Shown here piece after piece: positions 7,133 through 52,068 of a stretch of DNA of 64,000 nucleotides. The DNA lies in NCBI GenBank assembly GCA_964609895.1, contig CAZSTG010000004.1, positions 16,288-80,287 of the forward strand, given 5' to 3'. The notes below the pieces were generated by a model that did no database searches, was not told where the DNA came from, and was given only the letters and a program-made list of their open reading frames with translations. Position 1 is the stretch's first letter. Every line of letters begins with the position of its first letter. The stretch comes from an uncultured Gammaproteobacteria bacterium. Its GTDB lineage: Bacteria; Patescibacteriota; Microgenomatia; UBA10105; UBA927. The position numbers and the translations under genes were made by a program.

Positions 7133-7133
7133 T

Positions 7134-10144: not shown

Positions 10145-10175
10145 CAGAAACAAAGTGAAACGCGATACTTGTGCC

Positions 10176-10595: not shown

Positions 10596-10753
10596 GTTTA
10601 TATCGCCAACTCACATCAAAACATCCAAAAAAATCGAACCTTCTCGTCACTCATGTCGAAGTACAAAAAAACGACACTGAGCGCACCATATAATCAGGTT
10701 GTTTTCGTATTTCCTTTTTGTCATAATACATCTGCTCCAACGCGCGAACTTCT

Positions 10754-13267: not shown

Positions 13268-13271
13268 CACT

Positions 13272-13940
13272 ATGAGTTCACATAAACTCCAAGGAGAAAT
13301 CAGAACAATAACAGGAAAAAAGGTTAGGACAGTCCGTGCTGACGGGTATACGCCTGCGACTGTATATGGAAAAGGTGTTGAGGCACAAACAATCAGCATT
13401 CTCACAGGTGAATTAAAAAAAGTATATCGTGAAGCAGGGGAAACAGGGCTTATTGAACTGGAGATCAGCGGGAAAAAACATCCTGTCTTAATCCACACCG
13501 TACAAATACATCCCATCACAGGTGTCATGCTGCATGTTGAATTCCATGAAGTGAATTTGAAGGAAAAAGTGCATGCGGAAGTCCCAATTGAGCTTATTGG
13601 AGAACCTACGGCAATCAAGGAAAAAGTCGGAGTACTAATGCCGCTCATGGATCACGTGGAGGTAGAAGCACTTCCAGCCGAACTGCCTGAAAAAATCGAA
13701 ATAGATATTACAGCTCTTGCTGCGGTCAATGATCAGATTATGGTCGGAGAATTGACTGTTCCTGCAGGTGTTGCGGTATTGACAGATCCAACGCTTATCG
13801 TGGTAAAAATCGGAGCATTCGTGGTCGAAAAAGAACCGGAACCGGTAGCAGCCGAAACGCCTGCAGAAGGGGAAGCTGTGCCGGTGGAAGAAGGGGAAAA
13901 CAACGGAGAAAAACCAATGGAAGAGACCAAGGAAGAATAA
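13272..13940 (+). CDS. rplY: 50S ribosomal protein L25 / general stress protein Ctc
   Basis: 222 aa. N-terminal L25 fold sequence with an acidic C-terminal tail. Confidence 0.8.
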   Translation: MSSHKLQGEIRTITGKKVRTVRADGYTPATVYGKGVEAQTISILTGELKKVYREAGETGLIELEISGKKHPVLIHTVQIHPITGVMLHVEFHEVNLKEKVHAEVPIELIGEPTAIKEKVGVLMPLMDHVEVEALPAELPEKIEIDITALAAVNDQIMVGELTVPAGVAVLTDPTLIVVKIGAFVVEKEPEPVAAETPAEGEAVPVEEGENNGEKPMEETKEE

Positions 13941-13943
13941 CTC

Positions 13944-14546
13944 CTACAGTAACACTCCGAGTTGTGCCGCAAACTCCTTGACCGCTGCGTTGTTTGGATC
14001 CAGAGCATACGCCGCATTGATGTACGTCATTGCCGCGTCCTGTTTGTCCAAACGAAAACAAATGGCTGCAAGTGTCATATATGCATCCCGATAATCCGGA
14101 TGCTGTTCCACAACCGTCTTCCAAAACGCATAGGAACGGAGAATATAAGTCCGATCTTGTTCCCATCGGTTCAACATATCCTTTGGCTCTGACTGCACGC
14201 CAAGCACGCGTGGAACGAGTAGGGAAAAGGGCAAAGGAAATGTCCCAACCTGATCAGCCAACTGCAATTCTTTTGTGGCATCCGAAGTGTTTCCCAGTGT
14301 ATACAACCGCTGCCCGAATCGCATATGGTTGGCACTCGAAAAAGGGGAAATAATGAGATCCAGACGCTCTGTAATCAATGGATTGGGATGTACATGGATC
14401 ATCCAGACATTGAGCGCTATAAACGCCAGAAATGAGGCTAACGCGACGAAGCGGAATTGAGACAATTCAGGCAATGCGGAGAATATTCGGGAAATATGCG
14501 GTAATAACTGCTTTTGCACCCATGGTAAAATACGTATACGCAACAT
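13944..14546 (-). CDS. tetratricopeptide-repeat-like hypothetical protein
   Basis: 200 aa. The C-terminal half shows TPR-like A/L/Y periodicity (AAMTYINAAYALDPNNAAVKEF). Confidence 0.4.
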   Translation of the reverse strand: MLRIRILPWVQKQLLPHISRIFSALPELSQFRFVALASFLAFIALNVWMIHVHPNPLITERLDLIISPFSSANHMRFGQRLYTLGNTSDATKELQLADQVGTFPLPFSLLVPRVLGVQSEPKDMLNRWEQDRTYILRSYAFWKTVVEQHPDYRDAYMTLAAICFRLDKQDAAMTYINAAYALDPNNAAVKEFAAQLGVLL

Positions 14547-14584
14547 TAATGTTTATTGTATTGATGAGAGCGTTATAACGCAAT

Positions 14585-15289
14585 ATGACAGATTCTTTAC
14601 GCAGACAAACTGTTATAACACTTCTTGAAAAAACGTATCCAGACGCACACATCATGCTGTCATATCACTCTTCATGGGAGCTTCTTGTTGCTGTTATGCT
14701 CTCGGCGCAATGCACTGACAAAATGGTAAATACAGTCACTCCCACGTTATTTTCCATATATCCAACTGTACAAGCTATGGCATCTGCACCGATACAACAC
14801 GTAGAAATGCTCATCAAAAAAACAGGATTTTACAAAAACAAAGCAAAAAATATTGTCGAAACAGCAAAGCGCATCACGTCTGTATATAACGGAGAAGTGC
14901 CACACACAATGGATGAACTACTTACACTCAAAGGGGTAGCAAGAAAAACAGCAAATGTAGTGCTTACAAATGCCTTTGGCGTAGCAGAGGGCATCGCTGT
15001 TGACACACACGTCATCCGCTTAAGCCAACGACTTCGCCTCGTATCGCTACCCGCAATCGGAGGCAAAACATATACATATGTAGATTCAGATCATAAAACA
15101 ATTGATTTTATGAAGGATGCCGTACCAGAAAAAATTGAAAAAGAATTACAACAAGTACTGCCAAAAGAAAAATGGAATACAATCACGTATGAGCTTATCG
15201 ATCATGGCAGAGGAGTGTGTAAAGCGATCCGACCGCTGTGTCATTCCTGTGTGCTTGCACCATATTGTCCTTCAAAACGAACGATATAA
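14585..15289 (+). CDS. nth: endonuclease III (DNA glycosylase/AP lyase)
   Basis: 234 aa. HhH-GPD motif LTLKGVARKTANVVL. C-terminal 4Fe-4S cysteines C-x6-C-x2-C-x5-C. Confidence 0.85.
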   Translation: MTDSLRRQTVITLLEKTYPDAHIMLSYHSSWELLVAVMLSAQCTDKMVNTVTPTLFSIYPTVQAMASAPIQHVEMLIKKTGFYKNKAKNIVETAKRITSVYNGEVPHTMDELLTLKGVARKTANVVLTNAFGVAEGIAVDTHVIRLSQRLRLVSLPAIGGKTYTYVDSDHKTIDFMKDAVPEKIEKELQQVLPKEKWNTITYELIDHGRGVCKAIRPLCHSCVLAPYCPSKRTI

Positions 15290-17974: not shown

Positions 17975-18031
17975 ATGACTCTCTTCTTATAATTGACACT
18001 GTTTCCAACTCGTGAAACAATAACAAATACT

Positions 18032-18928
18032 ATGGATGACGAATCAACTTCTTTTGATCCAAAAACCCCGCAGCCGAATATCCAGTATGAAGAAACGCCG
18101 GTCATTACTCCTGTCGAAGAACAGACTCTGCAACCTGAAACGGCTGCTCCTCCTGTTGAAGAGCCAGCATTTCAAGAACAACAGACGGAAATGCCGGCTG
18201 CGCCCCCGAAAAAACGTTCGCCTAAAGCTGTTATCAAGGGTATTTTCATTTTTCTTATTCTGTTTATCGTAGGGTACGCGTTAAGCGGCGTTATACGGAC
18301 CATCATCACGCAAACGGGCACATCAGTTGCCACAAAAACAGCCCCAGAACCAACAAGCGCTCCGGTTGAAGTATTACCCACAACAACGGCTGCCACAGAA
18401 AGTGGTTTGACAGTCCTTCCTATACCAAAAATTTCCACGACGCCGACGTTGACTGCTTCCTCAAGTGCTTGGAAGCAATACAACCCGGTTCACGGGGCAT
18501 CACGCTCTCCCATTACATCTATCCGGTTCAGTCTTCCGACAACAATCCTCGCACCTGTCTGTGACGGATCATCCTGTGGATCTCAAGGAACATATTTGCC
18601 AGGCGGCACCCGACTTACTATAGCACCGCGGGGGGTAGGGGAAGTGCTTGCTGATTATCGAGGAAAAATCATCAGTGATGCCTCAGGGAAAGCTCTTATT
18701 ACCAAAGAAACAACCATTGGCGGCAAGAAAGCAACGGAATACACAACAGATACCACAGGGTCGACAGTCGGAGGATATGGGTTTACTATGATGCATGGGT
18801 ATATGGTGGAGGTCACAGACACACTTTCATTTGAAATTAATCATTTTTCACCAAACGGCATAACCACAGATTTTGCAGCAGACGACGTGCTTTTCAAATC
18901 GATTATAGGAACGATTCAATTCAACTAA
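18032..18928 (+). CDS. hypothetical single-pass membrane protein with Pro/Thr-rich linker and extracytoplasmic domain
   Basis: TM segment IFIFLILFIVGYAL, followed by a low-complexity T/P/A stretch. Confidence 0.45.
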   Translation: MDDESTSFDPKTPQPNIQYEETPVITPVEEQTLQPETAAPPVEEPAFQEQQTEMPAAPPKKRSPKAVIKGIFIFLILFIVGYALSGVIRTIITQTGTSVATKTAPEPTSAPVEVLPTTTAATESGLTVLPIPKISTTPTLTASSSAWKQYNPVHGASRSPITSIRFSLPTTILAPVCDGSSCGSQGTYLPGGTRLTIAPRGVGEVLADYRGKIISDASGKALITKETTIGGKKATEYTTDTTGSTVGGYGFTMMHGYMVEVTDTLSFEINHFSPNGITTDFAADDVLFKSIIGTIQFN

Positions 18929-21101: not shown

Positions 21102-21962
21102 TTATAACTCTTCAAGCTTCACGTTCTCGGACTGTTGTCCTTTGATAAGCTCCAGATATTTTTCCGTTGTTGACAACCGTTTATGTCCAACCAGCTTGGA
21201 AAGCGTCATAATCGGAGTACCTGCCATCAGATGATGGGCGATAAACGTGTGACGGAGATCATTGACTTTCGCACCCTCGATACCTGCAATCCTGAAGTAC
21301 CGGTCAATCGCGGTACGGATGTTCCGAATAAGGAGCGGTCTTCCTGTTTTTGTAATAAAGAGCGCATTGCTTTTTGCTTCGCTGTTTCTGATTGCCATAT
21401 ATTTACGAAGCGCTTCAAGAGCTGCTTTATTTAATGGCACCATTCGTTCCTCATGACCTTCCTGACTTGCAATGTGCAGTTCCGTTGCTTTGACATCACT
21501 GAGTGTAAGTGAAGCAAGCTCTCCTATACGAACACCGGTCTGCAAAAACAACTCAACGATTGCATACATCCGGATATCACCCCGACACGCGTCACGAAGA
21601 GCTCGGTATTCCAGCTTAGACAAAATCCGTGGCGGTTTTACATCATATTTCGGGTGTTCCACCTCAAGTGCAGGATCCGAGGCAATCAAATTGGAAATTT
21701 TCAGGAACCGAAAATAGGTTTTAATGGAATTGATTTTTCTCGACACTGACTTTGGGGTATAGCTGTCACTGGTAAGTTTCTTCAGAAATGCATCAATTTC
21801 GTCTTTTGTAATGTCTCCTACGGACTTTTTTTCTGCCGTCTGAAAAAACGTCAACATTTGGTCAATGTCTTTTTTATATGCTACGATGGTAGCACGTGCC
21901 CGCTTTCGGGACAGCAGATATTCAACAAACTGTTCATTTGTAGCCTTAAGATCAACACTCAT
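21102..21962 (-). CDS. tyrosine site-specific recombinase (XerC/XerD-like)
   Basis: 286 aa. Catalytic region with R...HxxR...Y (RHTFIAHHLMAG...TTEKYL). Confidence 0.75.
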   Translation of the reverse strand: MSVDLKATNEQFVEYLLSRKRARATIVAYKKDIDQMLTFFQTAEKKSVGDITKDEIDAFLKKLTSDSYTPKSVSRKINSIKTYFRFLKISNLIASDPALEVEHPKYDVKPPRILSKLEYRALRDACRGDIRMYAIVELFLQTGVRIGELASLTLSDVKATELHIASQEGHEERMVPLNKAALEALRKYMAIRNSEAKSNALFITKTGRPLLIRNIRTAIDRYFRIAGIEGAKVNDLRHTFIAHHLMAGTPIMTLSKLVGHKRLSTTEKYLELIKGQQSENVKLEEL

Positions 21963-24674: not shown

Positions 24675-26045
24675 ATGAAACGAATATTGTCAGGCATCAC
24701 ACCAAGCGGGGATGGGACACTCCACATAGGAAACTATCTCGGCGCGGTAAAACAGTTTATTGACATGGCTCGCACTAATGAGTGCTTTCTTTTTGTGGCT
24801 GATTTACACGCACTCACCACTATCCAAAATAAAAATCAGTTACAAAAAAATGTAGAGTCACTCATTCTTAATGAGCTAGCTTTACTGAAAGGATTCTTAA
24901 CACCAGAAGAATTTGAAAGGCTTGTTTTTTACAGACAATCTGACCTTGCAGGAATGCATCCGGAACTGCAAACAATTCTGAACAACATAACACCGCTTGG
25001 CCTGTTAAAACGAGCGCATGCGTACAAAGACAAACTACAAAAAGACATCATGGAAGATGACATCAATGTCGGGTTATTTTGCTACCCGATTCTCATGGCA
25101 TCAGACATTCTGCTCTACAAGCCAGATCTTGTACCAGTTGGGAAAGACCAAAAACAGCATGTGGAAATTGCCAGAGATGTCGCAGAGCGGTTTAACCGCG
25201 TCTACAAAAAACAAATATTCAAACTTCCGGAACCGTTTATTCCGGAATCAGTCGCCACCATTCTTGGCACCGACGGAAAAAGGAAAATGAGCAAGTCCTT
25301 AGGAAATATCATTTCTATTTTTGAGTCCGAAGACACAATCAAAAAACAGGTAATGGCAACATACACCGATCCGACACGGGCTCACGCTACAGACGCTGGA
25401 CATATCGAAGGAAACATGGTGTTTACATACCTCGACTTTTTTGGGAAAAAGGAAAAAGTAGATGAAATGAAAAATGCGTACACGAAGGGGCAAATAGCAG
25501 ATGTTGAAGTCAAACACTATTTATATGATTCTTTGCTGAAATACTTTCAAAACGCACGCGCTGCATATGAAGAGCTTAAAAATAATCAGGGAATGGTCAA
25601 GGAAATTTTGTCAAAAGGAAAAGAAAAAGCTATAGCCGTTGCAGAACAGACAATAAAAGAGGTCAGAGAGACAATCGGACTGCAAAACATCTATTCTCTT
25701 GGGGAAAGCAAAAAAACAGTCATTTCCATCGATGATTTTGCCGCCGTAGATATCAGAGTGGGGAAGGTAGAATCCGCTGAACATGTGGAAAAAAGTGAAA
25801 AACTGATCCGTCTCCACATAAACTTTGGCAATTTAGGAAAGCGGATTATTTTCACTGGCGTCAGACAATATGGATATACGGCCGACAGCTTTATCGGAAA
25901 ACAGTTTTTCTTTATCGTGAATCTTGCCCCACGAAAGATGATGGGTGAAGAATCACAGGGAATGATCATGGCCGCTGATGCGGAGGATGGAAAACCAATA
26001 TTTTTATCAGGCGACAATCTTCCTCTTGGATCAAAAATACGGTAA
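24675..26045 (+). CDS. trpS: tryptophan--tRNA ligase fused to C-terminal Trbp111/EMAP-II-like tRNA-binding (OB-fold) domain
   Basis: HIGH-region equivalent GITPSGDGTLHIGNYLGA and KMSKSLGN. About 330-aa catalytic core. An extra C-terminal tail of about 110 aa (DIRVGKVESAEHVEKSEKLIRLHINFGN...GEESQGMIMAA) resembles the MetRS-C/Trbp111 tRNA-binding fold. Confidence 0.75.
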   Translation: MKRILSGITPSGDGTLHIGNYLGAVKQFIDMARTNECFLFVADLHALTTIQNKNQLQKNVESLILNELALLKGFLTPEEFERLVFYRQSDLAGMHPELQTILNNITPLGLLKRAHAYKDKLQKDIMEDDINVGLFCYPILMASDILLYKPDLVPVGKDQKQHVEIARDVAERFNRVYKKQIFKLPEPFIPESVATILGTDGKRKMSKSLGNIISIFESEDTIKKQVMATYTDPTRAHATDAGHIEGNMVFTYLDFFGKKEKVDEMKNAYTKGQIADVEVKHYLYDSLLKYFQNARAAYEELKNNQGMVKEILSKGKEKAIAVAEQTIKEVRETIGLQNIYSLGESKKTVISIDDFAAVDIRVGKVESAEHVEKSEKLIRLHINFGNLGKRIIFTGVRQYGYTADSFIGKQFFFIVNLAPRKMMGEESQGMIMAADAEDGKPIFLSGDNLPLGSKIR

Positions 26046-26070
26046 ACAGAGGTGAAATAAGAAGATTATT

Positions 26071-27123
26071 CTATATCCTCAACTTCTTTGTCGGATGCGC
26101 GATTGCATGATACAACACACTTACGCAAAGCGTTGCAACAAAAGACAGGAGTAAACGAATGCCATATCCCAGATGAAAAGAAACGCCCACATGCTCCAAA
26201 AAAAACCGTATTATTGGCAGCTGAAACATAATAAATTCAAAACTAATGGCGCCAAGAAACAGAAAAATGTTTTTAGATAACAGCCAAGAAACTGAACCTC
26301 TGGCATAGGCAAAAAGCAACAGACATATACTCACGCTTGGCAGAAAAAACATGCTAAAACGGTATGCATCGGGAACATATTCCGCCAGAAAAATACTCAT
26401 TCCTAGAATACTTATGCTCTCCAGTTCTAGCACGGTTGCTATCCGGCGGGTAAAATGTTTCGTCATTGGATGAGATACAAAAAAAACGTATAACAGCATC
26501 CCTGTTACAAACTCGAATATTTTCGAAAATGGCGATATATATAAAAAATACGCCGCGTGACGCACACCAAAAAAATAGATGATGAAAAATTCTATCATCC
26601 AAAGCAATAAAATTGTTGACCATGAATGAAATCGATAGATGACCCGCAAGAGAAAGGGGAACGCTATCCAGCAAAAAATTAACGAGGATAAACTCCAAGC
26701 AACAGAATTAAAGGAATAGGCATATTGCAGTGAAGGAATATACGATTGCAGTAACAGCAGATTCGCTATCAACATGCTCCAAAATCGTTCTCCATATTCA
26801 TGAACAACAAAAGGAATGGTTATTCCCAACGTTAACAGGTGCAGGGGAAGAATTCGTTTCAGACGTTTGAGGCCATATGTTCCCCAATCAAACGTATGTG
26901 TTTGCAAACGCCACTGATAATTTGCCGTCAGTAAAAAACCGGAAAGAATAAAAAACGCGGTCGTCCCCGCATACCCATATGCAAGAAGCGGCATTTCTAG
27001 CAGATTAATAAAGGGGATCGCGCGAAATAACAGTGTATGATTTAAAAAAATAGCGATAGCTGCAAAAAAACGAATGGAAGTAAGCGGCAGTATACGATGA
27101 AAACTTTTTTCCAACACGCGCAT
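26071..27123 (-). CDS. acyltransferase family 3 (OafA/YrhL-like) integral membrane O-acyltransferase
   Basis: 350 aa with about 10 TM segments. N-terminal LTSIRFFAAIAIFLNH signature. Confidence 0.6.
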   Translation of the reverse strand: MRVLEKSFHRILPLTSIRFFAAIAIFLNHTLLFRAIPFINLLEMPLLAYGYAGTTAFFILSGFLLTANYQWRLQTHTFDWGTYGLKRLKRILPLHLLTLGITIPFVVHEYGERFWSMLIANLLLLQSYIPSLQYAYSFNSVAWSLSSLIFCWIAFPFLLRVIYRFHSWSTILLLWMIEFFIIYFFGVRHAAYFLYISPFSKIFEFVTGMLLYVFFVSHPMTKHFTRRIATVLELESISILGMSIFLAEYVPDAYRFSMFFLPSVSICLLLFAYARGSVSWLLSKNIFLFLGAISFEFIMFQLPIIRFFLEHVGVSFHLGYGIRLLLSFVATLCVSVLYHAIAHPTKKLRI

Positions 27124-27142
27124 AGTTCTTCTTAATCATTTG

Positions 27143-27844
27143 TTAAGACACATGTTTCTCTTTCGATTCCGACACAACTTTTCCCTTCTCCAAATGAATG
27201 ATACGTTGAAATAAATATTTAAACTTTTCTATAGTGTGCGAGCTGGCAACCACTGTTATATCCTTTTGACGAATTAAGCGCTGCAATGTCCTTTTTGTTT
27301 TTCGTCTATAATTAGCATCACCCACGTTAATCATTTCATCAAGTATCAGAATATCGGGCTCTGAATGAATGGCTATTGCAAAACCTAGCCGTAACATCAT
27401 TCCGCTTGAATACGTAAACAACGGCACATCAATAAACCTTCCTATGTCGGCATATGTAATAATTGCTGCGAGTTTCTGATCTATCTCCTTCTTCGACATA
27501 CCAAGCAACATACCGTTAATATAGATATTTTGTAGGCCGGTTAGATCACTGTGAAATCCTGCTTCAAGTCCAATAAGCGATATTATTTTCCCTTCGGTGT
27601 AAACCCGACCACGGGTCGGTGTACAGATACCGGAAAGAATTTTTAAAAGGGTCGTTTTCCCTGATCCGTTGGGACCAACGAAACCGACGCTTTCACCCTT
27701 ATGAATAGTTAAATTAATGGTGTCGAGAGCGAGAAACCGTTCGTCTTTGCCATTAATAAGTTTTTCAACAAGAGTAGGTTTTTCATGATGGATAATATAC
27801 TCTTTGGATATATGATCCAGTTTAATAGCAACAGTATTTTTCAT
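27143..27844 (-). CDS. ABC transporter ATP-binding protein (Wzt/TagH/KpsT-like glycan exporter)
   Basis: Walker A GPNGSGKTTLLKILSG. ABC signature and Walker B ILILDE. Start trimmed to MKNTVAIKLDHISKEY at 27842-27844. Confidence 0.8.
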   Translation of the reverse strand: MKNTVAIKLDHISKEYIIHHEKPTLVEKLINGKDERFLALDTINLTIHKGESVGFVGPNGSGKTTLLKILSGICTPTRGRVYTEGKIISLIGLEAGFHSDLTGLQNIYINGMLLGMSKKEIDQKLAAIITYADIGRFIDVPLFTYSSGMMLRLGFAIAIHSEPDILILDEMINVGDANYRRKTKRTLQRLIRQKDITVVASSHTIEKFKYLFQRIIHLEKGKVVSESKEKHVS

Positions 27845-27848
27845 AGTA

Positions 27849-28616
27849 TTAAATCCAATCATCAAAATTTTTACTCTCTCTCCGAAAGATAAGAATGCCA
27901 AGTGCCGCTATCAAAACAATCAGAGCACTATTTATCTGAAGCATCCGAGAACTCGGAAAAGGCAGGTTTAAAAAACTGTGCTGCAATATAAGAACAATAG
28001 ACGTCATGGGATTAAAATTCCATAAAAAAAGTAATCGTTCTGGAATAACAGACAGGGTATACACAATGGGTGTCGCGTAGAACCACACGGTAAGGAGTGC
28101 TTGAGTAAAAAATGCGACATCACGATATTTTACATGAAGGGCACTTGTCAGAAGACTTAAGCCGGTAGTAAAAACCAACAATAGTATGAGTGCAAAAAAC
28201 AGACTCGGCAGCCTTGCAATAACCTCAAATCCGCCTACTGTTGCGATAATTCCCAATATAAAAAGCGCTAATAAAAAATTAAAAAAATCTGCTAAAATGA
28301 TGGACATCGGAATTACTTCTCTAGGAAAAGCTGCTTTTTTTACCAAAGACCGTTCGTGGACAATGCATTGAGTCGTCTTAGAAAGGGAAATATTAAAAAA
28401 CCCCCATGCCAATAATCCCGTAAACAAATAATAATACTGATTTTGTATTTGCTGCTTAAAAATAAACTGGAAAATAAACCCGATGACAAGCATCTGCAGC
28501 ACTGGATTAATCACCATCCATAAAAAACCAAAAGCTGTATGTTTATAACGTACACGCAATTCTTTATCCGTTAAAGTAAATAACAGTGATATAAAATACC
28601 GTAAGCGCTTCATCAT
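27849..28616 (-). CDS. ABC-2 type transporter permease (Wzm/TagG-like)
   Basis: 6 TM segments. Sits immediately upstream of the ATPase. Start trimmed to MMKRLRYF (track ORF extends to 28676). Confidence 0.7.
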   Translation of the reverse strand: MMKRLRYFISLLFTLTDKELRVRYKHTAFGFLWMVINPVLQMLVIGFIFQFIFKQQIQNQYYYLFTGLLAWGFFNISLSKTTQCIVHERSLVKKAAFPREVIPMSIILADFFNFLLALFILGIIATVGGFEVIARLPSLFFALILLLVFTTGLSLLTSALHVKYRDVAFFTQALLTVWFYATPIVYTLSVIPERLLFLWNFNPMTSIVLILQHSFLNLPFPSSRMLQINSALIVLIAALGILIFRRESKNFDDWI

Positions 28617-28658
28617 CAAGGGGATTATACTACATACTGTTCCTTTTTTGTCTATGGT

Positions 28659-29267
28659 ATGATAAGAAAAACGCATTCCAACAATGAATATATGACTGCT
28701 GTATCACCACACATTTCAGTCTATAAAAGACCTCCCAAACAGATACATGAACAAATTAAACAACTCGGTTATATTTGTTTTGCTAACAAAAAACTAAGTG
28801 AAGTAGAACAGAAAATAAATCAAGACCAGATAACGGCAGATAAACCAGAAAAAGTTATAGTTGCAGTGGAAAATGGCGCGCTTCTTGGAAGAATAAAAAT
28901 ATTCAAAAGAGCTTCAGTATTTGATAACACCCGTATCACTATTGGAGGAATAGGTGGAGTCTGTGTGGAACCACATGTGAGAAATCAGGGAATCGGTTCT
29001 CGTTTACTCCGCGCCGCTTTGGTGGAAATCAAAAAAAGTAATGTTGATATTGCTCTCCTTCTTGTTGATTCTAAGAACAAAAAGGCAATTTCACTGTATC
29101 AAAAATTTGGCTTCACCCTCTTACAAAATAACGTTCTCTACACGGGTAAATCAGGAACACTATATACACAAAAAGGTGCGATGATAGCACCAATACGATC
29201 CAATAACATATACTCCAAGATATGCACCGTAAAAATCCCTGTACATATCGGTTGTGGTAATTTTTAA
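28659..29267 (+). CDS. GNAT family N-acetyltransferase
   Basis: 202 aa. Acetyl-CoA-binding motif GGVCVEPHVRNQGIGSRLLRAAL. Confidence 0.7.
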   Translation: MIRKTHSNNEYMTAVSPHISVYKRPPKQIHEQIKQLGYICFANKKLSEVEQKINQDQITADKPEKVIVAVENGALLGRIKIFKRASVFDNTRITIGGIGGVCVEPHVRNQGIGSRLLRAALVEIKKSNVDIALLLVDSKNKKAISLYQKFGFTLLQNNVLYTGKSGTLYTQKGAMIAPIRSNNIYSKICTVKIPVHIGCGNF

Positions 29268-29317
29268 TTACTTGCTATACTACTAGCACTCTGCCACCAA
29301 CAAATACGCTGCTCCTT

Positions 29318-30289
29318 GTGCGATATAATACATTGCTTATGTATCAGCTCCAATTACTAAAAACCACGATTGCAAATGGCTTTCTTCATGTTGTCATACG
29401 GCTTACTCCACCAATATATGCAAAAAAATATTCCAAAACCACTGGCATAATAACAAAAATTGGGCATAAGTATATAACAATGTATATATTGATGATGAAG
29501 ACGTTTGTGTTCTTTTCTAAACTCTCGCTTGCCACCTGTGTCATTGATGATGGAACATTGACAAAACACGACAAACAAGTTCTTGCAAAACACGTCAGAA
29601 ATATTCGCATCATCAGTGCTTCTGCCGGTCTGAAAGCGGTAAAAAAAATAAAAACAAGATACCCATATATATATAGATACCGCATGGAGACTCATCCAGA
29701 TCTATTTACCCACAACACATGTCTATATGATCTTACGCAGTTGTCAGGATTTAAAAAATTTATTATTCTTGACGCGGATATAGTTTTTTTTAAAAAACCG
29801 ACAACCATTATTAATTGGGTGAATTCAAAAAATGAGCGCACGTATTATATGGCGTTTCCATCCAGCTATCTGTACGCAACAAGTGGATGGGGGAGAATAA
29901 TCCTACAGATTTTTTCCACACTTTGGAAATCAGATATTCCTGTGTTATTTAATGACGGTATTATTTGTGGATATAAGCACTGGTTTACATTAGACGTGCT
30001 CGAGCGACATACGAAAATGGTCTATGCGTATGGATTGCAACATTCTTGGATCAGTCTTATTCTTATCTGGTCAGGCATCTTTTTGCATTTTTCTAAAAAC
30101 CCAAAAACTCCAATCTCACCGCTTCCGGCAGTACACTATGGCATTTTAACTGTAAAAACGCTCCAGTCTCGTCTTAGAAACGCCGTGTTCTCCTATACGT
30201 GTCTACATTATATCGGCCCATTTAAAAACCTGTATCTACCATTGGACGCATATAAGCTATTTATTTCTTACTGCACACATAATCTATGA
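29318..30289 (+). CDS. hypothetical protein, tandem paralog A of uncharacterised DxD family (putative nucleotide-sugar transferase)
   Basis: 323 aa. Shares motifs with the next gene: DDGTLTKHDK / DDGTLTTKDK, ILDADIVFFKKPTTIINW / LLDSDVLFFSRPTAIIDW, and CLHY / IHYH near the C-terminus. Confidence 0.45.
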   Translation: MRYNTLLMYQLQLLKTTIANGFLHVVIRLTPPIYAKKYSKTTGIITKIGHKYITMYILMMKTFVFFSKLSLATCVIDDGTLTKHDKQVLAKHVRNIRIISASAGLKAVKKIKTRYPYIYRYRMETHPDLFTHNTCLYDLTQLSGFKKFIILDADIVFFKKPTTIINWVNSKNERTYYMAFPSSYLYATSGWGRIILQIFSTLWKSDIPVLFNDGIICGYKHWFTLDVLERHTKMVYAYGLQHSWISLILIWSGIFLHFSKNPKTPISPLPAVHYGILTVKTLQSRLRNAVFSYTCLHYIGPFKNLYLPLDAYKLFISYCTHNL

Positions 30290-31227
30290 ACATGGTACTC
30301 AAAAACACAAGGCAAAAACTGATAAAAACGCTTGTGTATCTTCTGTTGCAATGTACAAAACCGGTTGTACTTAATCAAACACAATATAATGTGTCATTTT
30401 GCTCCATGGTGTCTCATAATCATCTCCTCCTCTATATAGTCGCTATCAAATCGTTCATCTATTGGTCACATCTCCATCTGCCAGCAATGATTGTTGATGA
30501 TGGAACACTGACAACAAAAGATAAAGCACTGCTTACTTATCACCTGAAACATTGCCTTGTTATATCAAAAAAAACAGCGGATAAAAAAGCAAAACGGGAG
30601 CTTCGGGCTTATCCTCATTGTCTCACATACAGATTAGATACAACTCACGACATCGAAACACATAATCAAAAATTATTTGACCCTTTTTTATTGTGTCGAA
30701 CGGACTATTTCATTCTTTTGGATTCTGATGTCCTATTCTTTTCCCGCCCCACTGCAATCATTGATTGGATCAAAAGCGACAAAAAACATTTTGTGTATAT
30801 GCAATATAACCCCTTGTATATACAGACATGCAACACATGGGGAATGCTAACAATGAAAATTTTTGCAAAGCTCGTTGGAAATCCAAGTGCAGTTAAACTC
30901 AATTCCGGACTCGTATGCGGCAAAACGTCATTATTTTCACTTGCGAAAGCTGAGCAACTTTGCGCTGCCTATTTTACCTACAGATTAAACCGTACTTGGT
31001 TGGGAGATCAGCCGGTTCTTGCACAGATATTCCTGTCTGAAAAAAAATCAGTCACTAAAAAATCCGGCTTACCAAGCGATACGTTTTGCATACTCACAGA
31101 TGCCAATATGAGAAAAAACTTGTGGAAAAAGGCGTGTATCCACTATCATACAGGCATAAATAAACATCTTTGTTTTATAGACAGTATTCGCTTATTGCTG
31201 AAAACTCAGCTTTTTACAAAATCATAG
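30286..31227 (+). CDS. hypothetical protein, tandem paralog B of the same DxD family
   Basis: 313 aa. ATGA overlap with paralog A. Roughly 30 percent identity to it by eye over the full length. Confidence 0.45.
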   Translation: MNMVLKNTRQKLIKTLVYLLLQCTKPVVLNQTQYNVSFCSMVSHNHLLLYIVAIKSFIYWSHLHLPAMIVDDGTLTTKDKALLTYHLKHCLVISKKTADKKAKRELRAYPHCLTYRLDTTHDIETHNQKLFDPFLLCRTDYFILLDSDVLFFSRPTAIIDWIKSDKKHFVYMQYNPLYIQTCNTWGMLTMKIFAKLVGNPSAVKLNSGLVCGKTSLFSLAKAEQLCAAYFTYRLNRTWLGDQPVLAQIFLSEKKSVTKKSGLPSDTFCILTDANMRKNLWKKACIHYHTGINKHLCFIDSIRLLLKTQLFTKS

Positions 31228-31232
31228 AGTAA

Positions 31233-31979
31233 TTGACAGTATTACATATGAAACACCAATATAGTAATTTTGTCATTCTTACGACACAAAGAACAGGTTC
31301 TACCTATATTGCGCATCTGTTGGATTCCCATCCGTCCGTCGTATCTTATGGCGAAATATTCCACCGGTTCGGCGTTGGTTGGGGAAGCAGGACACAGCGC
31401 ACAAACACGAGGTGGTTATTCTATATGCGCAACATCTTTCCCATCGTGTTTCTCAACACGCAGGTGTTTCATGCATATCCGTCAAACATTCGTGCTGTCG
31501 GTTTTAAACTGATGTACGGTCAAGCTACCCGTTTTCCGTCAGTTCTGCGGTACCTTGCAAATCAGCAAAGTACTATTATTTTTCTCAACCGCAAAAACCT
31601 ACTCGAGTCACTCGTATCACTCAAACGCGCGCAGTATTCCCGTATTTGGACTCTCAAATCAGCATCGGAAAAACCAGCAATCCACATATATATAGATGAA
31701 CAGGAGTGTCTCAATTATTTTATGGAGACGGATTGTCTTCATCGGCAATTCTGTGCGTATTTCAAAAAAAACCCTTCCATGCAGATATATTATGAGGACG
31801 TGTGTCAGAAAGGGACGCATGGACTTGATGCGGTGCAGCGTTTTTTGGCAATCCCCAGAAAACCGCTCTCTTCTCCAATTACAAAACTGAGAGGAGCTCC
31901 GCTAGAGGAAACGGTAGTAAATTACTTCGAGTTGAAAAAAAAGTTTTCCAAAACGAAATGGGCATCATTTTTTCCATGA
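31233..31979 (+). CDS. putative sulfotransferase (Stf0/Sulfotransfer_3-like PAPS-binding N-terminus)
   Basis: N-terminal motif NFVILTTQRTGSTYIAHLL resembles the 5'-PSB loop (x-R-[ST]-G-S-T) of Stf0-type carbohydrate sulfotransferases. About 245 aa. Confidence 0.45.
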   Translation: MTVLHMKHQYSNFVILTTQRTGSTYIAHLLDSHPSVVSYGEIFHRFGVGWGSRTQRTNTRWLFYMRNIFPIVFLNTQVFHAYPSNIRAVGFKLMYGQATRFPSVLRYLANQQSTIIFLNRKNLLESLVSLKRAQYSRIWTLKSASEKPAIHIYIDEQECLNYFMETDCLHRQFCAYFKKNPSMQIYYEDVCQKGTHGLDAVQRFLAIPRKPLSSPITKLRGAPLEETVVNYFELKKKFSKTKWASFFP

Positions 31980-33022
31980 AACGCATTTTATATATATCAT
32001 CGACAGACGAATCAGCTTCCATCCAAAATACGGAAAGAAGAAAGGCTTTGTTGCAGGAGCTCGGTTTTTCCGTCACTCTGTATACGTCAAAACAACAGGG
32101 TCTTTCGGAACTGCTGCAGTTGATTCCACACATACACACCTATACCATGCTCTATATACGTATTGACGGATCCTGTCGCCTTGACAAATTCAGCTTTCTC
32201 AAACTTATTCGTCCTTCACTCAGAATCGTTTGGGAAATTCATGGATTTCCGGAAGAAAATGATAGAAACAGCCACAGTGCACGTACTCATGGGCTCAGTG
32301 CGATCAAGAGACTGGTATATTCCGCATGTGCAAACGGGTATGTTTTTGTCTCTGAAGAGTTGCAGCAATATGCAAAGAAAAAAATACTTCGGCGTCCTCA
32401 AACCGTCATTCCAAATTTTATTCCGTCCGGTTTCAAACAATCCTTTAAACATACGCCGTCCAAAACCCTTAGGTCAAAAGGCACATCGCTTCGATATGTT
32501 TTATGGACCGGCAATGGAGCGTATCCGTGGCATGCGCTCGATATACTCGAACAGGTGGCAAAACTGTCTTACCGGCGCAATAAACATATTCGGTTTATAG
32601 TAATTTCCCCATATCTTTGGCATACGTTTTCCTGGTATCGGAATATCCTGTTTATCGCAGGGGCTCCCAATACCGTGGTACAGAAGTATATTGGGCAAAG
32701 TGATGTGTGTCTTGCGCTGTATCACAAACCGCCCGCATGCCCGTTTTATTTTTCTCCGTTGAAAATTCTCGACTATATGATCAACAAAAAACCTGTTATT
32801 GCAACAGGGTTAGGGCAAATAAACACAGTAATAGCCGATGGGATTAACGGGTATGTCACGGATAATGAGCCTGAAGACATCGTGGAAAAAATTCAGTATC
32901 TCATAACTCACCCTAAGGAAAGAACCGCGATGGGGGATAAGGGGTATGATACCATCACTTGCCAAAGGTCATATGCTAAGGCAAAAAAAGCGTATCAGGC
33001 ATTTTTTAATAAAATATGGTAA
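31958..33022 (+). CDS. glycosyltransferase family 4 (GT-B fold)
   Basis: C-terminal GT4 signature KKPVIATGLGQINTVIADGINGYV. Confidence 0.65.
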   Translation: MGIIFSMKRILYISSTDESASIQNTERRKALLQELGFSVTLYTSKQQGLSELLQLIPHIHTYTMLYIRIDGSCRLDKFSFLKLIRPSLRIVWEIHGFPEENDRNSHSARTHGLSAIKRLVYSACANGYVFVSEELQQYAKKKILRRPQTVIPNFIPSGFKQSFKHTPSKTLRSKGTSLRYVLWTGNGAYPWHALDILEQVAKLSYRRNKHIRFIVISPYLWHTFSWYRNILFIAGAPNTVVQKYIGQSDVCLALYHKPPACPFYFSPLKILDYMINKKPVIATGLGQINTVIADGINGYVTDNEPEDIVEKIQYLITHPKERTAMGDKGYDTITCQRSYAKAKKAYQAFFNKIW

Positions 33023-34236
33023 TAAACCAACAAAAAAAGGCCGTTGTTATCGTACTAGATGAATTTTTCACAAGCGGTATCACCACATTTATTTATTCCT
33101 ATTCCCAGTATCTTCTCTCAGCTGGGTTTGATGTGATTTTGATAGGCAAATCAAAAAATGAATCATGGATCACCCAAAAATTTCATGGGTGTACCCTGTA
33201 CACATTCTCCGAAACCAAACCAGCAAAATTACTCGGAGAAAAGCTGATAACCTATATTCAAAACGTTTTCTGGTACGCCAAGTTGTTTCGAAAAGTACGC
33301 CATAAACATTCCATTCTTGCAGTTCATTTTAATCAGGTGCTCTCAGCTTTTGGCATTCTGCTGTTTTCCCCTTCGGTCTATAGATATCAAAGAATATATA
33401 CGTTTCATGGAGACAGAGCGCAGGAACTCCAAAGTGAACAAGTGGAGCATCCTGTCCGCATACTACATATTGCCGTCATGCAACAGTTGCAGCGTTTTGT
33501 TTTACATCACTGCTCAGCTGTTGTTGCAGTAAGTCTGTATGGACTCAAAAGATTACGCGAGTTACGAACGCCAAATAGTAGATATATTCCTAATGGTATA
33601 TTTATGGATACAACTGGCGCGCGGGGAATAAAAAAAGAAAAAAAACTACAGCGTATGCAATACCATTGCATCAACATATCTCGATTCGAACCGCGAAAAG
33701 GACATATTCTCTTGCTACATGCTATGCGTCAGTTACTCCAAAAAAATATACCCATACAAACGACAATTGCCGGACCTGTTTCAAGTGAGTTATTACCGAT
33801 TCTATACGAATATGGACGGTTAAAATTAACCTCGCATATACGATTCTGTTATCAACCAGACACCGAGACGCAAGCGGCTCTCCTCCGGACGGCTGATCTC
33901 TTTATCATGCCGTCTGTCGCACTAGAAAACTGCCCCTTTACCATTATCGAGGCGCTTGCACACGGAATACCTGTTATCGGAACTCCTGTCGGAGGCATAC
34001 CGGAAATGCTTGAAAAAATCGACTCCCGCCTGATAGCCAAACAGGCTCGTCCGGAGGATCTGGCAAAAACAATTTTATGGTATCTGCGCCTGCCCGCATC
34101 ACAAAAACAGACCATACGGGCAACATGCCGAATCACGGCACAAACCTATTACAATGCTGCGATCAACTATAAAAAATATGTGCGGCTCTATCAGAAGGCA
34201 AAGCGCTCGAACTCCGCTGATAAAAATGTGCAATAA
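33016..34236 (+). CDS. glycosyltransferase family 4
   Basis: EALAHGIPVIGTPVGGIPEML (E-x7-E-like GT4 motif). Confidence 0.7.
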   Translation: MVINQQKKAVVIVLDEFFTSGITTFIYSYSQYLLSAGFDVILIGKSKNESWITQKFHGCTLYTFSETKPAKLLGEKLITYIQNVFWYAKLFRKVRHKHSILAVHFNQVLSAFGILLFSPSVYRYQRIYTFHGDRAQELQSEQVEHPVRILHIAVMQQLQRFVLHHCSAVVAVSLYGLKRLRELRTPNSRYIPNGIFMDTTGARGIKKEKKLQRMQYHCINISRFEPRKGHILLLHAMRQLLQKNIPIQTTIAGPVSSELLPILYEYGRLKLTSHIRFCYQPDTETQAALLRTADLFIMPSVALENCPFTIIEALAHGIPVIGTPVGGIPEMLEKIDSRLIAKQARPEDLAKTILWYLRLPASQKQTIRATCRITAQTYYNAAINYKKYVRLYQKAKRSNSADKNVQ

Positions 34237-34314: not shown

Positions 34315-36174
34315 ATGAAAAAAAGGCCGAAGAAAACAGCAGATAACCAAAAGCCGATGAAAATGGCTGAATTCAGGATCAATTTTAACCTTAAAAACAT
34401 CGTCATCGGTTTGCTTATTCTGTTCGTTATTTTTTCTATGTTTGAAAACATGTCCGGTGCCGGAGCTTCAATCACTGAACAACCGTTCACGTCCGTCATC
34501 TCAGATATTAAAGAAAACAAAATCAAAAAAATTGAAGTTGAAGATTCCAAGCTTTCCGTTGTATATACGGACGGAAAAAAAGTGCTGTCGTACAAAGAAC
34601 CGCAGGATTCATTATATTCAATCCTTGAAAAATCCGGTATTGATCCGAAAACAGTGGAAATAAAGGTAAAAGACTTTAACGCGGGACAGCTGTGGATGGG
34701 GATACTTTCAAATGTTTTACCATTGATCCTCACTGTTGTATTTTTTCTGTTTCTGTTTAGACAGGCAAGGGGAGCACAGGATAATGTTTTTTCATTTGGA
34801 CAAAGCAAGGCAAAATTATGGAACAAAGATTTGCCGAAAATCACATTTGCAGACGTTGCGGGAGTGGATGAGGCAAAAAATGAAGTGATGGAGATTGTAG
34901 ATTTTCTCAAAAACCCAGCAAAATACAAAGCCCTCGGCGCCAGAACACCCAAAGGTGTTATTCTTGTCGGCCCATCAGGAACAGGAAAAACGCTCCTTGC
35001 CAAAGCTATGGCCGGAGAAGCAAAAGTACCGTTCTATTCCATCGCGGGAAGTGAATTTATGGAAATGCTTGTCGGTGTGGGAGCTGCCCGTGTCAGAGAC
35101 CTGTTTGCGACGGCTAAAAAAACAGCTCCGGCAATTATCTTCATTGATGAAATAGATGCAATCGGTAGAATGCGCTCTGTTGGCGCCATGGGCGGACATG
35201 ATGAACGGGAACAGACGTTAAACCAGATACTGGTGGAAATGGACGGATTTGAACCGAATACAGCAGTCCTCGTGGTCGCGGCAACAAACCGTGGAGATCT
35301 TCTTGATCCTGCGCTTACCCGTCCGGGAAGGTTTGACAGACGGGTAACACTGGATCTGCCGGACATGGAAGGCCGAAAATCAATCCTTAAAATTCATGCC
35401 AAAGGAAAGCCATTAGCACCGACGGTTGACTGGGATAAAGTCGCAAAGCGTACCGTCGGATTTTCCGGTGCCGATCTTGAAAACATGCTCAATGAGTCAG
35501 CTATTCATGCGGCGCGTCAGGATAAGAAAGTTATTTCCTATGGCGACATAGAAGAATCCGCAACAAAAGTAAAACTCGGACCGGAAAAGAAACGGCTACA
35601 AAGCGACACAGACCGAAAAATGACCGCCTGCCATGAAGCTGGACATGCAGTGGTGAATTACCATCTAATGGATATGGACAAAGTCCACAGAATTTCCATC
35701 ATATCCCGTGGTATGGCACTCGGTTATACGCTCACTCCACCTGAAAAAGACCGGCTGCATGAAACAAAATCACATCTTATCAACCAGATTGCAACAATGA
35801 TGGGAGGACGGGCTGCTGAGGCACTCATCTACAAAGACGTGACGAGCGGCGCTGCCAGTGACATCGATCAGGCAACCAGAATTGCACGATATATGGTGAT
35901 GGAATTCGGTATGAGCCCGCTTGGTCCCATTAATTTCGGACCGAATATGGACGTCACAGAATGGGGCAAGTCACTCATGGAAAATCAGCAAATCTCTCCG
36001 GAAATGCTCGGGAAAATTGACGCGGAAATTCAAAAATTTGTGTTTGAAGGATACCAGACAGCGGAAAATATTCTGAAGAAATACAAAAAACAGCTGGAAC
36101 TAGTTACCAAAGCACTGGTTGAGAAAGAGACGCTAGAAGGGGACGAGTTTGAAGAACTCATGAAAAATTCATAA
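34315..36174 (+). CDS. ftsH: ATP-dependent zinc metalloprotease FtsH
   Basis: 619 aa. Two N-terminal TM segments. AAA Walker A GPSGTGKTLLAKA. SRH and zinc motif HEAGHAV. Confidence 0.9.
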   Translation: MKKRPKKTADNQKPMKMAEFRINFNLKNIVIGLLILFVIFSMFENMSGAGASITEQPFTSVISDIKENKIKKIEVEDSKLSVVYTDGKKVLSYKEPQDSLYSILEKSGIDPKTVEIKVKDFNAGQLWMGILSNVLPLILTVVFFLFLFRQARGAQDNVFSFGQSKAKLWNKDLPKITFADVAGVDEAKNEVMEIVDFLKNPAKYKALGARTPKGVILVGPSGTGKTLLAKAMAGEAKVPFYSIAGSEFMEMLVGVGAARVRDLFATAKKTAPAIIFIDEIDAIGRMRSVGAMGGHDEREQTLNQILVEMDGFEPNTAVLVVAATNRGDLLDPALTRPGRFDRRVTLDLPDMEGRKSILKIHAKGKPLAPTVDWDKVAKRTVGFSGADLENMLNESAIHAARQDKKVISYGDIEESATKVKLGPEKKRLQSDTDRKMTACHEAGHAVVNYHLMDMDKVHRISIISRGMALGYTLTPPEKDRLHETKSHLINQIATMMGGRAAEALIYKDVTSGAASDIDQATRIARYMVMEFGMSPLGPINFGPNMDVTEWGKSLMENQQISPEMLGKIDAEIQKFVFEGYQTAENILKKYKKQLELVTKALVEKETLEGDEFEELMKNS

Positions 36175-36189
36175 AAACAGCACATACCT

Positions 36190-37131
36190 GTGAATCGCCT
36201 CATTATCATTGACGGAAACGCAATTTTACACCGTGCCTTTCACGCACTTCCTCCGCTTACCGCGCCAAACGGCACAACAGTAAATGCGGTGTATGGCTTC
36301 ACTTCTATGCTTCTCAGACTTGTCAATGATCTTTCGCCGACACATCTTGCGGTCGCCTTCGACCGTCCGGCGCCGACGTTCAGAAAAAACCTGTATGAGG
36401 GGTACCAGATCAAGCGGCCAAAAATGGATGAGGGGCTTGCGACGCAGATACCACTAGTGCATGACGTTATTCACGCAATGGAAATTCCCGTATTTGAAAT
36501 GGACGGCTTTGAGGCGGATGATGTCATTGGAACGTTGTGCAGCCATCACACCAAAACCATGGATCAGATCATCATTGTGACGGGAGACAGAGATCTCTTG
36601 CAACTAGTTACAGAAAAGATCAAACTGTATATGCCGACCAAAGGACTCTCTGAAGCAAAACTCTACGGCATTCAGGAAACCATTGAACGGTTAGGTGTTC
36701 CCCCGAAACAGATACCGGATTATAAAGCACTCGCAGGTGACAGCTCGGACAACTATCCGGGAGTACCGGGAATCGGTCCAAAAACCGCATCAGAACTGCT
36801 CCGCATCTATCCATCTATCGACGAAATCTATAAACATATACACAACGCGACCATCAAACCGCTTCTGCAACACAAACTGCAGACCGGTAAAGAGCTTGCG
36901 TTCCTCTCTAAAAAACTTGCCACTATACACCGTGATGTTCCTATACAAAGACAGGTCAAACCTATTGTGACATCCCAACTATCAACAGACCGTGTACGTG
37001 CCCTGCTGCAGCAATTTGGGTTCAATTCACTCATAAAACGGATGGAGCAGCCCAAGGAAGTACCCACGAAGGCAGACAGAAAAAAAGAGGAAAGAAAAAA
37101 AGTTATCGATGAACAAATGTCACTGATATAA
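36190..37131 (+). CDS. 5'-3' exonuclease / flap endonuclease (Pol I N-terminal-domain homolog)
   Basis: 313 aa. MNRLIIIDGNAILHRAFHALP... FEN acidic clusters and a helix-hairpin-helix region. Confidence 0.8.
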   Translation: MNRLIIIDGNAILHRAFHALPPLTAPNGTTVNAVYGFTSMLLRLVNDLSPTHLAVAFDRPAPTFRKNLYEGYQIKRPKMDEGLATQIPLVHDVIHAMEIPVFEMDGFEADDVIGTLCSHHTKTMDQIIIVTGDRDLLQLVTEKIKLYMPTKGLSEAKLYGIQETIERLGVPPKQIPDYKALAGDSSDNYPGVPGIGPKTASELLRIYPSIDEIYKHIHNATIKPLLQHKLQTGKELAFLSKKLATIHRDVPIQRQVKPIVTSQLSTDRVRALLQQFGFNSLIKRMEQPKEVPTKADRKKEERKKVIDEQMSLI

Positions 37132-39057: not shown

Positions 39058-39648
39058 TTATACCTTCTTGAAGATTTCCCTCATAACAAGTGTTGCCATA
39101 AACACACAAGATCGGAAAAACAGACGAGTATCGTAAAAAAAATTTTTCCTTTGAACATATAAACAGTCATCTCTCATCCATTCATCAAATGTTCGCTGAT
39201 GATAGCCGTTGAATATCCACGGTGACACTATTCCAGGTTTGATCTTTTGCCGTTCTTTTTGCCATGGAAGCAGGTGTTTTGCTTCCGAAAGGGGAAGCGG
39301 TCGCGGTCCAAACAGTGCCATATCTCCGACCAACACATTCCATAGTTGTGGAAGTTCATCAAGACCCGTGTGACTTAAAAACCTCCCGAATGAAGTAAAT
39401 CTGGGATCATTATGAATTTTAAACACCGGCCCTCTGGCTTCATTCTGTAGCCGGTATTTTTTTTGATCCTGTTCTGCATGTAGATACATGGTTCTGAATT
39501 TATACATAATAAACGGCACGCCATCCTTGCCGACGCGTCGTTGACGAAAAAAAACCGGTCTTCCCGAAAAGCAGAAAACACCAATGCTGATCACCGCAAA
39601 AACGGGGGAAAGTACCAATAACAGGAAAAAAACAAAAACCGTGTACAT
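39058..39648 (-). CDS. PglC/WbaP-type small phosphoglycosyl transferase (initiating sugar-1-phosphate transferase)
   Basis: 196 aa. One N-terminal re-entrant helix, then GRPVFFRQRRVGKDGVPFIMYKFRTM and DELPQLWNVLVGDMALFGPRP signature. Confidence 0.8.
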   Translation of the reverse strand: MYTVFVFFLLLVLSPVFAVISIGVFCFSGRPVFFRQRRVGKDGVPFIMYKFRTMYLHAEQDQKKYRLQNEARGPVFKIHNDPRFTSFGRFLSHTGLDELPQLWNVLVGDMALFGPRPLPLSEAKHLLPWQKERQKIKPGIVSPWIFNGYHQRTFDEWMRDDCLYVQRKNFFYDTRLFFRSCVFMATLVMREIFKKV

Positions 39649-48342: not shown

Positions 48343-48452
48343 AGTGCTGTTCTGTTAATGACAGGTGAGGAAATATGCAAAAAACTGATCGGCCGGCGCC
48401 GACAGGTCTGTTCACAAATTTATAAATTGTTCAATCAATAAAACGGTGGTTC

Positions 48453-51922: not shown

Positions 51923-52030
51923 TTTCTAAACACTCATTCTCTTCACGGATACTGTACTACACTTTTAAAAGCAAAACAACCGCCCTTGTTTTTTGTGCAT
52001 TATTGACAAATTGAAATGGCAAGTTTATAT

Positions 52031-52049
52031 TGTGGATAAGTTGTCCACA
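52031..52049 (+). promoter_or_regulatory. two adjacent DnaA boxes upstream of dnaA (TGTGGATAA = perfect box on minus; TTGTCCACA one mismatch)
   Basis: 52031-52039 and 52041-52049, within 20-40 nt of the dnaA ATG at 52069. Suggests autoregulation or part of the origin. Confidence 0.6.
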
Positions 52050-52068
52050 TCTCTTGCCCTCATATATT

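Follow-up and report, generated by a model that had tools for sequence, protein, structure and literature searches.

A tandem pair of putative GT8-like glycosyltransferases in a glycan locus, one with a remodelled predicted donor-sugar subsite

Two adjacent genes of a glycan locus, hereafter A and B, probably encode a pair of GT8-like alpha-glycosyltransferases of a glycan pathway that depends on an ABC transporter; A would be either respecialised or non-catalytic. The proteins match no Pfam-A or NCBIfam model and belong to a family whose named members are all called "hypothetical protein", and which is likely a very divergent sister branch of CAZy GT8/GT24, whose members include the retaining alpha-transferases LgtC, the C-terminal domain of WbbM, glycogenin and the N-terminal domain of LARGE1. 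The most interesting point, absent from the original prediction made on this DNA, is the loss in A of the residues aligned with the donor-sugar contacts of LgtC. The biology is otherwise as expected in a glycan locus, and the surprise for a specialist is moderate.

Positions are given in the numbering of the window, the whole stretch of 64,000 nt that was analysed. The ORF of A (29318..30289, +) runs over 323 aa from a GTG start and encodes a GT8-like GT-A protein in which the predicted donor-sugar subsite is remodelled. Its probable true start is the ATG at 29339, which gives 316 aa and matches the start of an orthologue with 88% identity (P0098); residue numbers of A count from the GTG at 29318. 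B (30286..31227, +; 313 aa, ATG start) encodes a GT8-like GT-A protein in which the motif set is complete. The two ORFs overlap by an ATGA at 30286..30289 (+): in the window sequence, positions 30284-30292 read CTATGAACA, and the TGA stop of A shares bases with the ATG of B. Translation of the two genes may be coupled through this overlap. A and B are 30% identical across 277 aa (BLASTP, E 9e-50), far beyond chance. The ORF list, the junction sequence and the BLASTP alignment thereby bear out the original prediction, which had described two paralogous ORFs joined by an ATGA overlap, and the motifs that it quoted are found both in A (DDGTLTKHDK, ILDADIVFF, PTTIINW and LHYI) and in B (DDGTLTTKDK, LLDSDVLFF, PTAIIDW and IHYH).

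We modelled both proteins with AlphaFold2 using the family alignment. The models of A (pLDDT 91.7, pTM 0.90) and B (pLDDT 90.9, pTM 0.91) show an identical order of secondary-structure elements, and a GT-A fold with a DxD motif is predicted for each. When the PDB was searched with Foldseek, the predicted model retrieved a GT8/GT24 set at E ~1e-8, with GlyE, glycogenin and UGGT among the matches, and the nearest structural neighbours of these GT-A-fold models are GT8 enzymes. Sequence searches gave little: with the cut-off relaxed to E<=1, neither A nor B matched a Pfam-A or NCBIfam model, PF01501 (Glyco_transf_8) included, in line with the earlier remark that they do not resemble GT2/GT4 signatures. 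Weak matches to Pfam GT8 were seen in 9 of 37 relatives (best 5e-6), and searches of PDB sequences by phmmer and by hmmsearch with 37- and 148-sequence profiles returned chance matches only (RIG-I, a phytase and 2oo3). We then compared the family profile by hhalign with a small GT8 alignment, in which the chain sequences of LgtC, 3tzt and WbbM were combined with GT8 domains taken from two fusion proteins. Profile and alignment matched over 207 columns with a probability of 94.2% (E 1.1e-7). As no curated GT model or PDB sequence matches, the GT8 homology rests on profile-profile and fold comparison. The idea of a novel, DxD-containing GT-A-like family was essentially right, except that the family is not kinless and is a remote relative of GT8.

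A relationship to GT2 was rejected, since hhalign against a GT2 alignment gave 3.2% and aligned the DxD strand alone; Glyco_tranf_2_3 matched one of the 37 members marginally (E 0.25). It is very improbable that A and B are Stealth-like hexose-1-phosphate transferases building phosphodiester-linked, teichoic-acid-like or capsule-like polymers; the Pfam conserved regions Stealth_CR1-CR4 have no match in A or B.

One of the nearest points of comparison is LgtC, the Neisseria alpha-1,4-galactosyltransferase (CAZy GT8; PDB 1g9r/1ga8), for which the structure-based identity is 12-15%. Compared with LgtC, family members carry about 35 additional N-terminal residues that form a helix and a strand, together with an HDDGTL motif, and lack the PW that follows the basic residue; A further lacks equivalents of R86, D188 and Q189. 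The C-terminal GT8 domain of WbbM, which acts in Klebsiella O-antigen galactan synthesis (PDB 6u4b), is part of a two-domain protein recognised by the Pfam GT8 model, whereas A and B are separate single-domain paralogs that match no curated model. The catalytic domain of UGGT (GT24), glycogenin and the N-terminal GT8 domain of LARGE1 together fall in GT-A clade 9 (Taujale et al. 2020). These are eukaryotic enzymes that act on proteins or glycogen, and the KPW lysine is a feature of the GT8/GT24 clade (PMC7185993); in the family studied here, by contrast, all that is left of KPW is one basic residue, which is R in most members and K in A and B. KPW itself occurs in 2 of 162 family sequences, while HYxGxx[RK], with the spacing of LgtC K250, occurs in 90 of the 162 and in A.

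We used the LgtC structure as a guide to the active site, taking residue equivalences from the sequence-profile alignment. According to PMC13128908, which describes the structure of Persson et al., R86 and the DxD of LgtC make contact in the sugar-phosphate region, D188 forms a hydrogen bond with the donor sugar, Q189 places donor and acceptor, and K250 holds the diphosphate. The common core of GT-A enzymes comprises the DxD, the G-loop, the xED position and the C-His (PMC7185993). All four features have counterparts in B, together with a predicted Rossmann-like core. Starting from the N terminus, DDGTLT (30496..30513, +), with D71, D72 and G73 at the end of beta-2, aligns with L-D37-A-G39 of LgtC and may be an acidic site for nucleotide binding. 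In HNQKLFD (30661..30681, +), K129 aligns with the sugar-phosphate contact R86, and D132 is nearly invariant in the family. The DxD of LDSDVLFF (30718..30741, +), D146 and D148, aligns with D103/D105, and the G-loop residues N206 and G208 of LNSGL (30898..30912, +) align with N153/G155. TWLGDQP (30994..31014, +) carries D241-Q242 at the place of D188-Q189, the xED-equivalent position and a donor-sugar contact. Finally, IHYHTGINK (31138..31164, +) contains H286, aligned with the C-His H244, a metal ligand. K293 is likely the equivalent of K250, with one residue inserted relative to HYxGxx[RK]. The three donor-sugar contacts R86, D188 and Q189 are thus matched in B by K129, D241 and Q242. Residues conserved in at least 90% of the family are D72, G73, R116, D132, D146, D148, P155, N206, G208, Y267 and H286, and a (D/E)-Q dyad is found in about 89%.

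On this alignment, B would bind its metal through D146/D148 and H286, hold the donor sugar with K129 and D241-Q242, form its G-loop with N206/G208 and contact the diphosphate through the basic residue after HY. B is most likely a canonical enzyme that adds an alpha-linked hexose from a UDP-sugar.

Much of this site is also present in A. DDGTLT (29546..29563, +; residues 77-82), the DxD of LDADIVFF (29768..29791, +; D152 and D154) and the G-loop of FNDGI (29948..29962, +; N212 and G214) are all retained. LHYIGPFK (30203..30226, +) supplies the C-His H297 and K303, with an H-Y-x-G-P-x-K spacing equal to that of HYCGPAK in LgtC. The metal ligands of LgtC (D103, D105 and H244) align with D152/D154/H297 of A as they do with D146/D148/H286 of B, so that a putative Mn2+-ligand set of DxD and C-His is present in both proteins. 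A departs from the family at the donor-sugar contacts, where it has C135, L247 and I248. In HNTCLYD (29711..29731, +), Cys135 occupies the family Lys/Arg site equivalent to R86, and in SWISLILIW (30044..30070, +), L247-I248 occupies the site of the (D/E)-Q dyad equivalent to D188-Q189. A accordingly has three of the four common-core features, without the acidic residue of the xED position and without the Gln.

These replacements recur across the A lineage. Both orthologues of A (P0098 and P0181, with 88% and 53% identity) have the same Cys and carry L-I or L-V at the dyad site, so that Lys/Arg has become Cys, the acidic residue Leu, and Gln either Ile or Val in all three sequences, which at the same time keep the DDG, the aspartate at the D132 position of B, the DxD, the N-x-G, the C-His and an LgtC-like HYIGPFK. 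The triple replacement is unique to this lineage among 162 family sequences and 86 ORFs of other genomes; several other lineages of the family change only the Gln, which becomes Leu, Glu, Met or Pro. A single-copy relative, P0134, located in another setting of GT2, methyltransferase and GT4 genes, is 38.6% identical to A and to B and keeps the canonical residues. Being canonical and equally close to both, it indicates that the duplication occurred within this subfamily and that the state of A is derived.

We compared the gene order with that of close relatives. A Microgenomates-group MAG encodes a hypothetical protein that shares 84% identity with B, on a 1.02-Mb contig that keeps the order PALP enzyme, tRNA synthetase, acyltransferase, Wzt, Wzm, GNAT, A and B, followed by sulfotransferase, GT4, GT4, FtsH, 5'-3' exonuclease and GT4. 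A second, remoter lineage (53% identity for A and 42% for B) has the order GNAT, sulfotransferase, A, B, sulfotransferase, GT4, GT4 and GT2; it adjoins Wzm/Wzt, has APS kinase, FdtA and DegT nearby, and its gene boundaries overlap by 4 nt. An APS kinase is nearby throughout relatives L004-L006. In every case A lies immediately upstream of a canonical B, with stop and start overlapping or 3 nt apart. Compared with their Microgenomates orthologues, the two genes of the window have dN/dS values of 0.12 (A) and 0.19 (B), showing that both genes are intact and under purifying selection and that A is the slower-evolving of the two. Pseudogenes were ruled out on the same grounds, A and B being intact in the relatives.

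We somewhat favour A being still a transferase, with a remodelled and more hydrophobic sugar pocket and a different donor or acceptor. Its metal and nucleotide residues are kept, whereas COSMC, a documented GT-A pseudoenzyme, has lost its DxD (PMC7185993). The slower evolution of A than of B also argues for an active enzyme, as does the xED position, which varies among retaining GT-As (PMC7185993). A hydrophobic pocket could, speculatively, suit a deoxy or acetamido sugar. As for the proposal that the two genes are GT-A glycosyltransferases duplicated for two successive additions, fold and motifs agree with the first part, and the second is the reading towards which we lean, provided that A is remodelled; the pair would then perform two different additions.

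The loss of the residues aligned with R86, D188 and Q189 may also abolish the activity of A. We therefore weighed, as a possible but less probable explanation, that A is a non-catalytic pseudo-glycosyltransferase that binds nucleotide and metal or serves as a scaffold within an obligate heterocomplex with an active B. Among plants, GAUT7 and GAUT1 form a GT8 pseudo-glycosyltransferase partner pair. Like COSMC/C1GALT1, CHPF/CHSY and GAUT7/GAUT1, the locus combines a duplicated GT-A paralog that has lost catalytic-site residues with an intact one beside it. All three LgtC donor-sugar contact positions are hydrophobic or Cys in 3/3 A-lineage sequences, the combination is found nowhere else in the sequences surveyed, A always directly precedes a canonical B, and two of four other multi-copy loci similarly pair one variant copy with one canonical copy. 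These points are weakened by the differences from known pseudo-glycosyltransferase partners: A keeps the DxD, the C-His, the G-loop and the diphosphate-binding Lys, and it is under stronger purifying selection than B and more conserved (52% identity to its L004 orthologue, compared with 43% for B). Furthermore, the Gln also varies in other family members and the acidic position varies in retaining GT-As. It is doubtful, although conceivable, that A acts as a GT8-like pseudo-glycosyltransferase or specificity subunit, with UDP and Mn2+ bound, in an obligate, translationally coupled heterocomplex with B. If it did, A and B would be the first example of a GT-A family of more than 3,000 clusters, as yet unannotated, that serves ABC-exported surface glycans, here probably sulfated, in CPR bacteria and many other phyla. 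The pair also offers a natural comparison of sugar subsites in retaining GT-As, with the same fold and metal site and all three residues aligned with donor-sugar contacts replaced.

We further examined how widespread the family is. An exhaustive profile search of 1.84 billion representative proteins, clustered at 50% identity, yielded 3,118 clusters at a threshold of E<=1e-3, of which 1,263 remain at E<=1e-30. A typical member has ~300 aa, every member with any source name is called "hypothetical protein", and precomputed Pfam domains appear only twice among the matches listed, once as GT8 and once as PF04055. In parallel, a scan of one genome per species, seeded with the pattern DSDVLFFxxP from the 37-sequence alignment and hence biased towards canonical members, collected 178 relatives. 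These come from Verrucomicrobiota (many of them Chthoniobacterales), Planctomycetota, Omnitrophota, Acidobacteriota, Chloroflexota, Patescibacteria, Cyanobacteria (Nostoc, Anabaena, Leptolyngbya and Coleofasciculus), Bacteroidota (Mucilaginibacter and Flavihumibacter) and a few archaea. In longer members, the domain is fused to GT2, GT4, GT-D, canonical GT8, GDSL esterase or DUF6492. Copy number over 87 loci, including the 7 close-relative loci, is mostly one, with nine loci carrying two copies and two carrying three.

The surroundings of the family point to glycan synthesis. Among 137 immediate neighbours at 80 loci, GT4 (32) and GT2 (14) lead, followed by methyltransferases, polysaccharide pyruvyl transferases and GT8. 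A homologue of the Wzm permease of the window lies within <=6 kb at 20 of the 80 loci and a Wzt-like ATPase at 29, while a sulfotransferase homologue is present at a single one. These counts indicate that the association with glycan genes is family-wide and that the association with sulfotransferases is specific to the small clade of the window; a family-wide functional tie to sulfotransferases was accordingly rejected. The suggestion that A and B modify an acceptor together with the adjacent sulfotransferase is very improbable, the linkage being absent from 79 of the 80 other loci. Very improbable too is an alternative in which A and B are protein glycosyltransferases, similar to glycogenin or GlyE, acting on a surface or S-layer protein. 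GT8 does include enzymes that act on proteins, and the structural matches include GlyE, glycogenin and UGGT; on the other hand, family members sit among GT4/GT2 genes and Wzm/Wzt across phyla, and the region of A and B itself encodes an initiating enzyme (Bac_transf) and a Wzy_C protein.

A large family now named "hypothetical protein" would in this way gain a testable function, as metal-dependent GT8-like glycosyltransferases of ABC-exported surface glycans. A family profile would improve the annotation of glycan loci, for example in Nostoc and Mucilaginibacter, both cultivable and amenable to knockouts. A search of the literature on sulfotransferases and glycosyltransferases of Patescibacteria found nothing relevant.

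Domain matches confirm that the neighbours of A and B are glycan genes, as originally described. Directly upstream of A is a GNAT acetyltransferase (28659..29267, +) that is a member of the conserved module. Directly downstream of B is a sulfotransferase-like gene (31233..31979, +), which scores just under the Pfam curated cut-offs for Sulfotransfer_3/Stf0 and is kept in relatives, and then two GT4 glycosyltransferase genes in the same direction (31958-33022 and 33016-34236, +). Divergent from A and B are an ABC-2 permease (Wzm-like; 27849-28676, -) and an ABC ATPase (Wzt-like; 27143-27901, -), which together are an exporter of the Wzt/Wzm or TagH/TagG type, and beyond them lies a membrane protein of the Acyltransferase_3 (Acyl_transf_3) family (26071..27123, -), a probable glycan O-acyltransferase. 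Further along, the locus encodes Bac_transf, a small initiating phosphoglycosyl transferase (39058-39648), as well as GT4, GT2, WecG/TagA (GT26), a DegT aminotransferase, a Gfo/Idh/MocA oxidoreductase, an NAD-dependent epimerase/dehydratase, an RmlC-like epimerase and the Wzy_C protein. The window contains no APS kinase, and no PAPS-synthesis gene or donor-sugar pathway that can be linked to A or B. A promoter/terminator scan around the operon gave chance-level counts (30 against 29.5 expected; 10 against 9.5).

This arrangement suggests a pathway in which A and B would be soluble or peripheral cytoplasmic GT-A-fold enzymes, Mn2+/DxD-dependent and using nucleotide sugars, co-transcribed and translationally coupled with the GNAT, the sulfotransferase-like enzyme and the two GT4s. 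Bac_transf would start a lipid-linked glycan that A and B decorate or extend, B adding its sugar at the cytoplasmic face before the Wzm/Wzt-type ABC transporter exports the product. The analyses show the paralogy, the fold, the motif register with GT8, the conservation, the synteny and the purifying selection; we infer the donor type, the retaining stereochemistry, the acceptor, the order of action and whether A is active. Enzymes of the DegT, FdtA, RmlC-like and GNAT types are present in the locus and its relatives, which we record beside the idea of a deoxy or acetamido sugar. The G+C of the 26-32 kb region is 0.36-0.39, below that of most of the window.

The gene downstream of B, the second of the tandem GT8-like paralogs A and B, encodes a sulfotransferase-like protein (31233-31979, plus strand) whose Pfam matches fall narrowly below the cut-offs, with scores of 26.2 against 27 for Sulfotransfer_3 and 21.5 against 22 for Stf0. 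Despite these sub-cut-off scores, the gene is kept in relatives. In the more distant relative L004, A-B is flanked by two sulfotransferase-like genes, and an APS kinase is also present at the locus (2927-3805, 7249-8004 and 9901-10632 for the three genes jointly). No APS kinase was found within the 64-kb window.

The block comprising the acyltransferase, Wzt, Wzm, GNAT, A, B and sulfotransferase genes (26001-32000) has a G+C content of 0.36-0.39, and the region around the Wzy_C/GT4 genes (48001-52000) one of 0.39-0.40. Both lie below the rest of the window, at about 0.42-0.47, which would fit glycan modules that are exchanged horizontally. Within the first block, the Wzt-like ORF (27143-27901, minus strand; 252 aa from a TTG) overlaps the Wzm ORF (27849-28676, minus strand) by 53 nt. 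Because its orthologues measure 233 aa, the true start probably lies further downstream than the listed TTG.

The glycosyltransferase genes are interrupted by FtsH (34315-36174) and a 5'-3' exonuclease (36190-37131), and this break (34315-37131) is also kept in L001, the Microgenomates relative (12014-14831). Pfam gave no match for three ORFs of 311-363 aa, at E<=1e-3 for 47356-48342 (plus strand) and at E<=1e-4 for 54736-55827 (minus strand) and 17993-18928 (plus strand); the first adjoins the RmlC-like gene within the glycan gene region. An XerC/D-like tyrosine recombinase (21102-21962, minus strand), with Phage_integrase and N-terminal SAM-like domains, adjoins a class I aminoacyl-tRNA synthetase gene.

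DnaA (52030-53442) sits beside DnaN, the DNA polymerase III beta clamp (53626-54732), at the site where the cumulative GC skew of the window reaches its minimum (near 50-54 kb). The window therefore probably holds the chromosomal replication origin region.

Elsewhere in the A/B family, some proteins (P0121, P0115 and P0155) join a canonical GT8 domain to the family domain. P0121, a representative-library protein of 913 aa, carries a C-terminal DUF6492 in addition to both, so DUF6492 may be a glycan-related domain too. At L037, a locus from a Verrucomicrobiae MAG, a second family copy (6606-7708) is broken up into a pair of ORFs that overlap each other (6606-7358 and 6890-7708), which suggests a frameshift, due to either a pseudogene or an assembly error.
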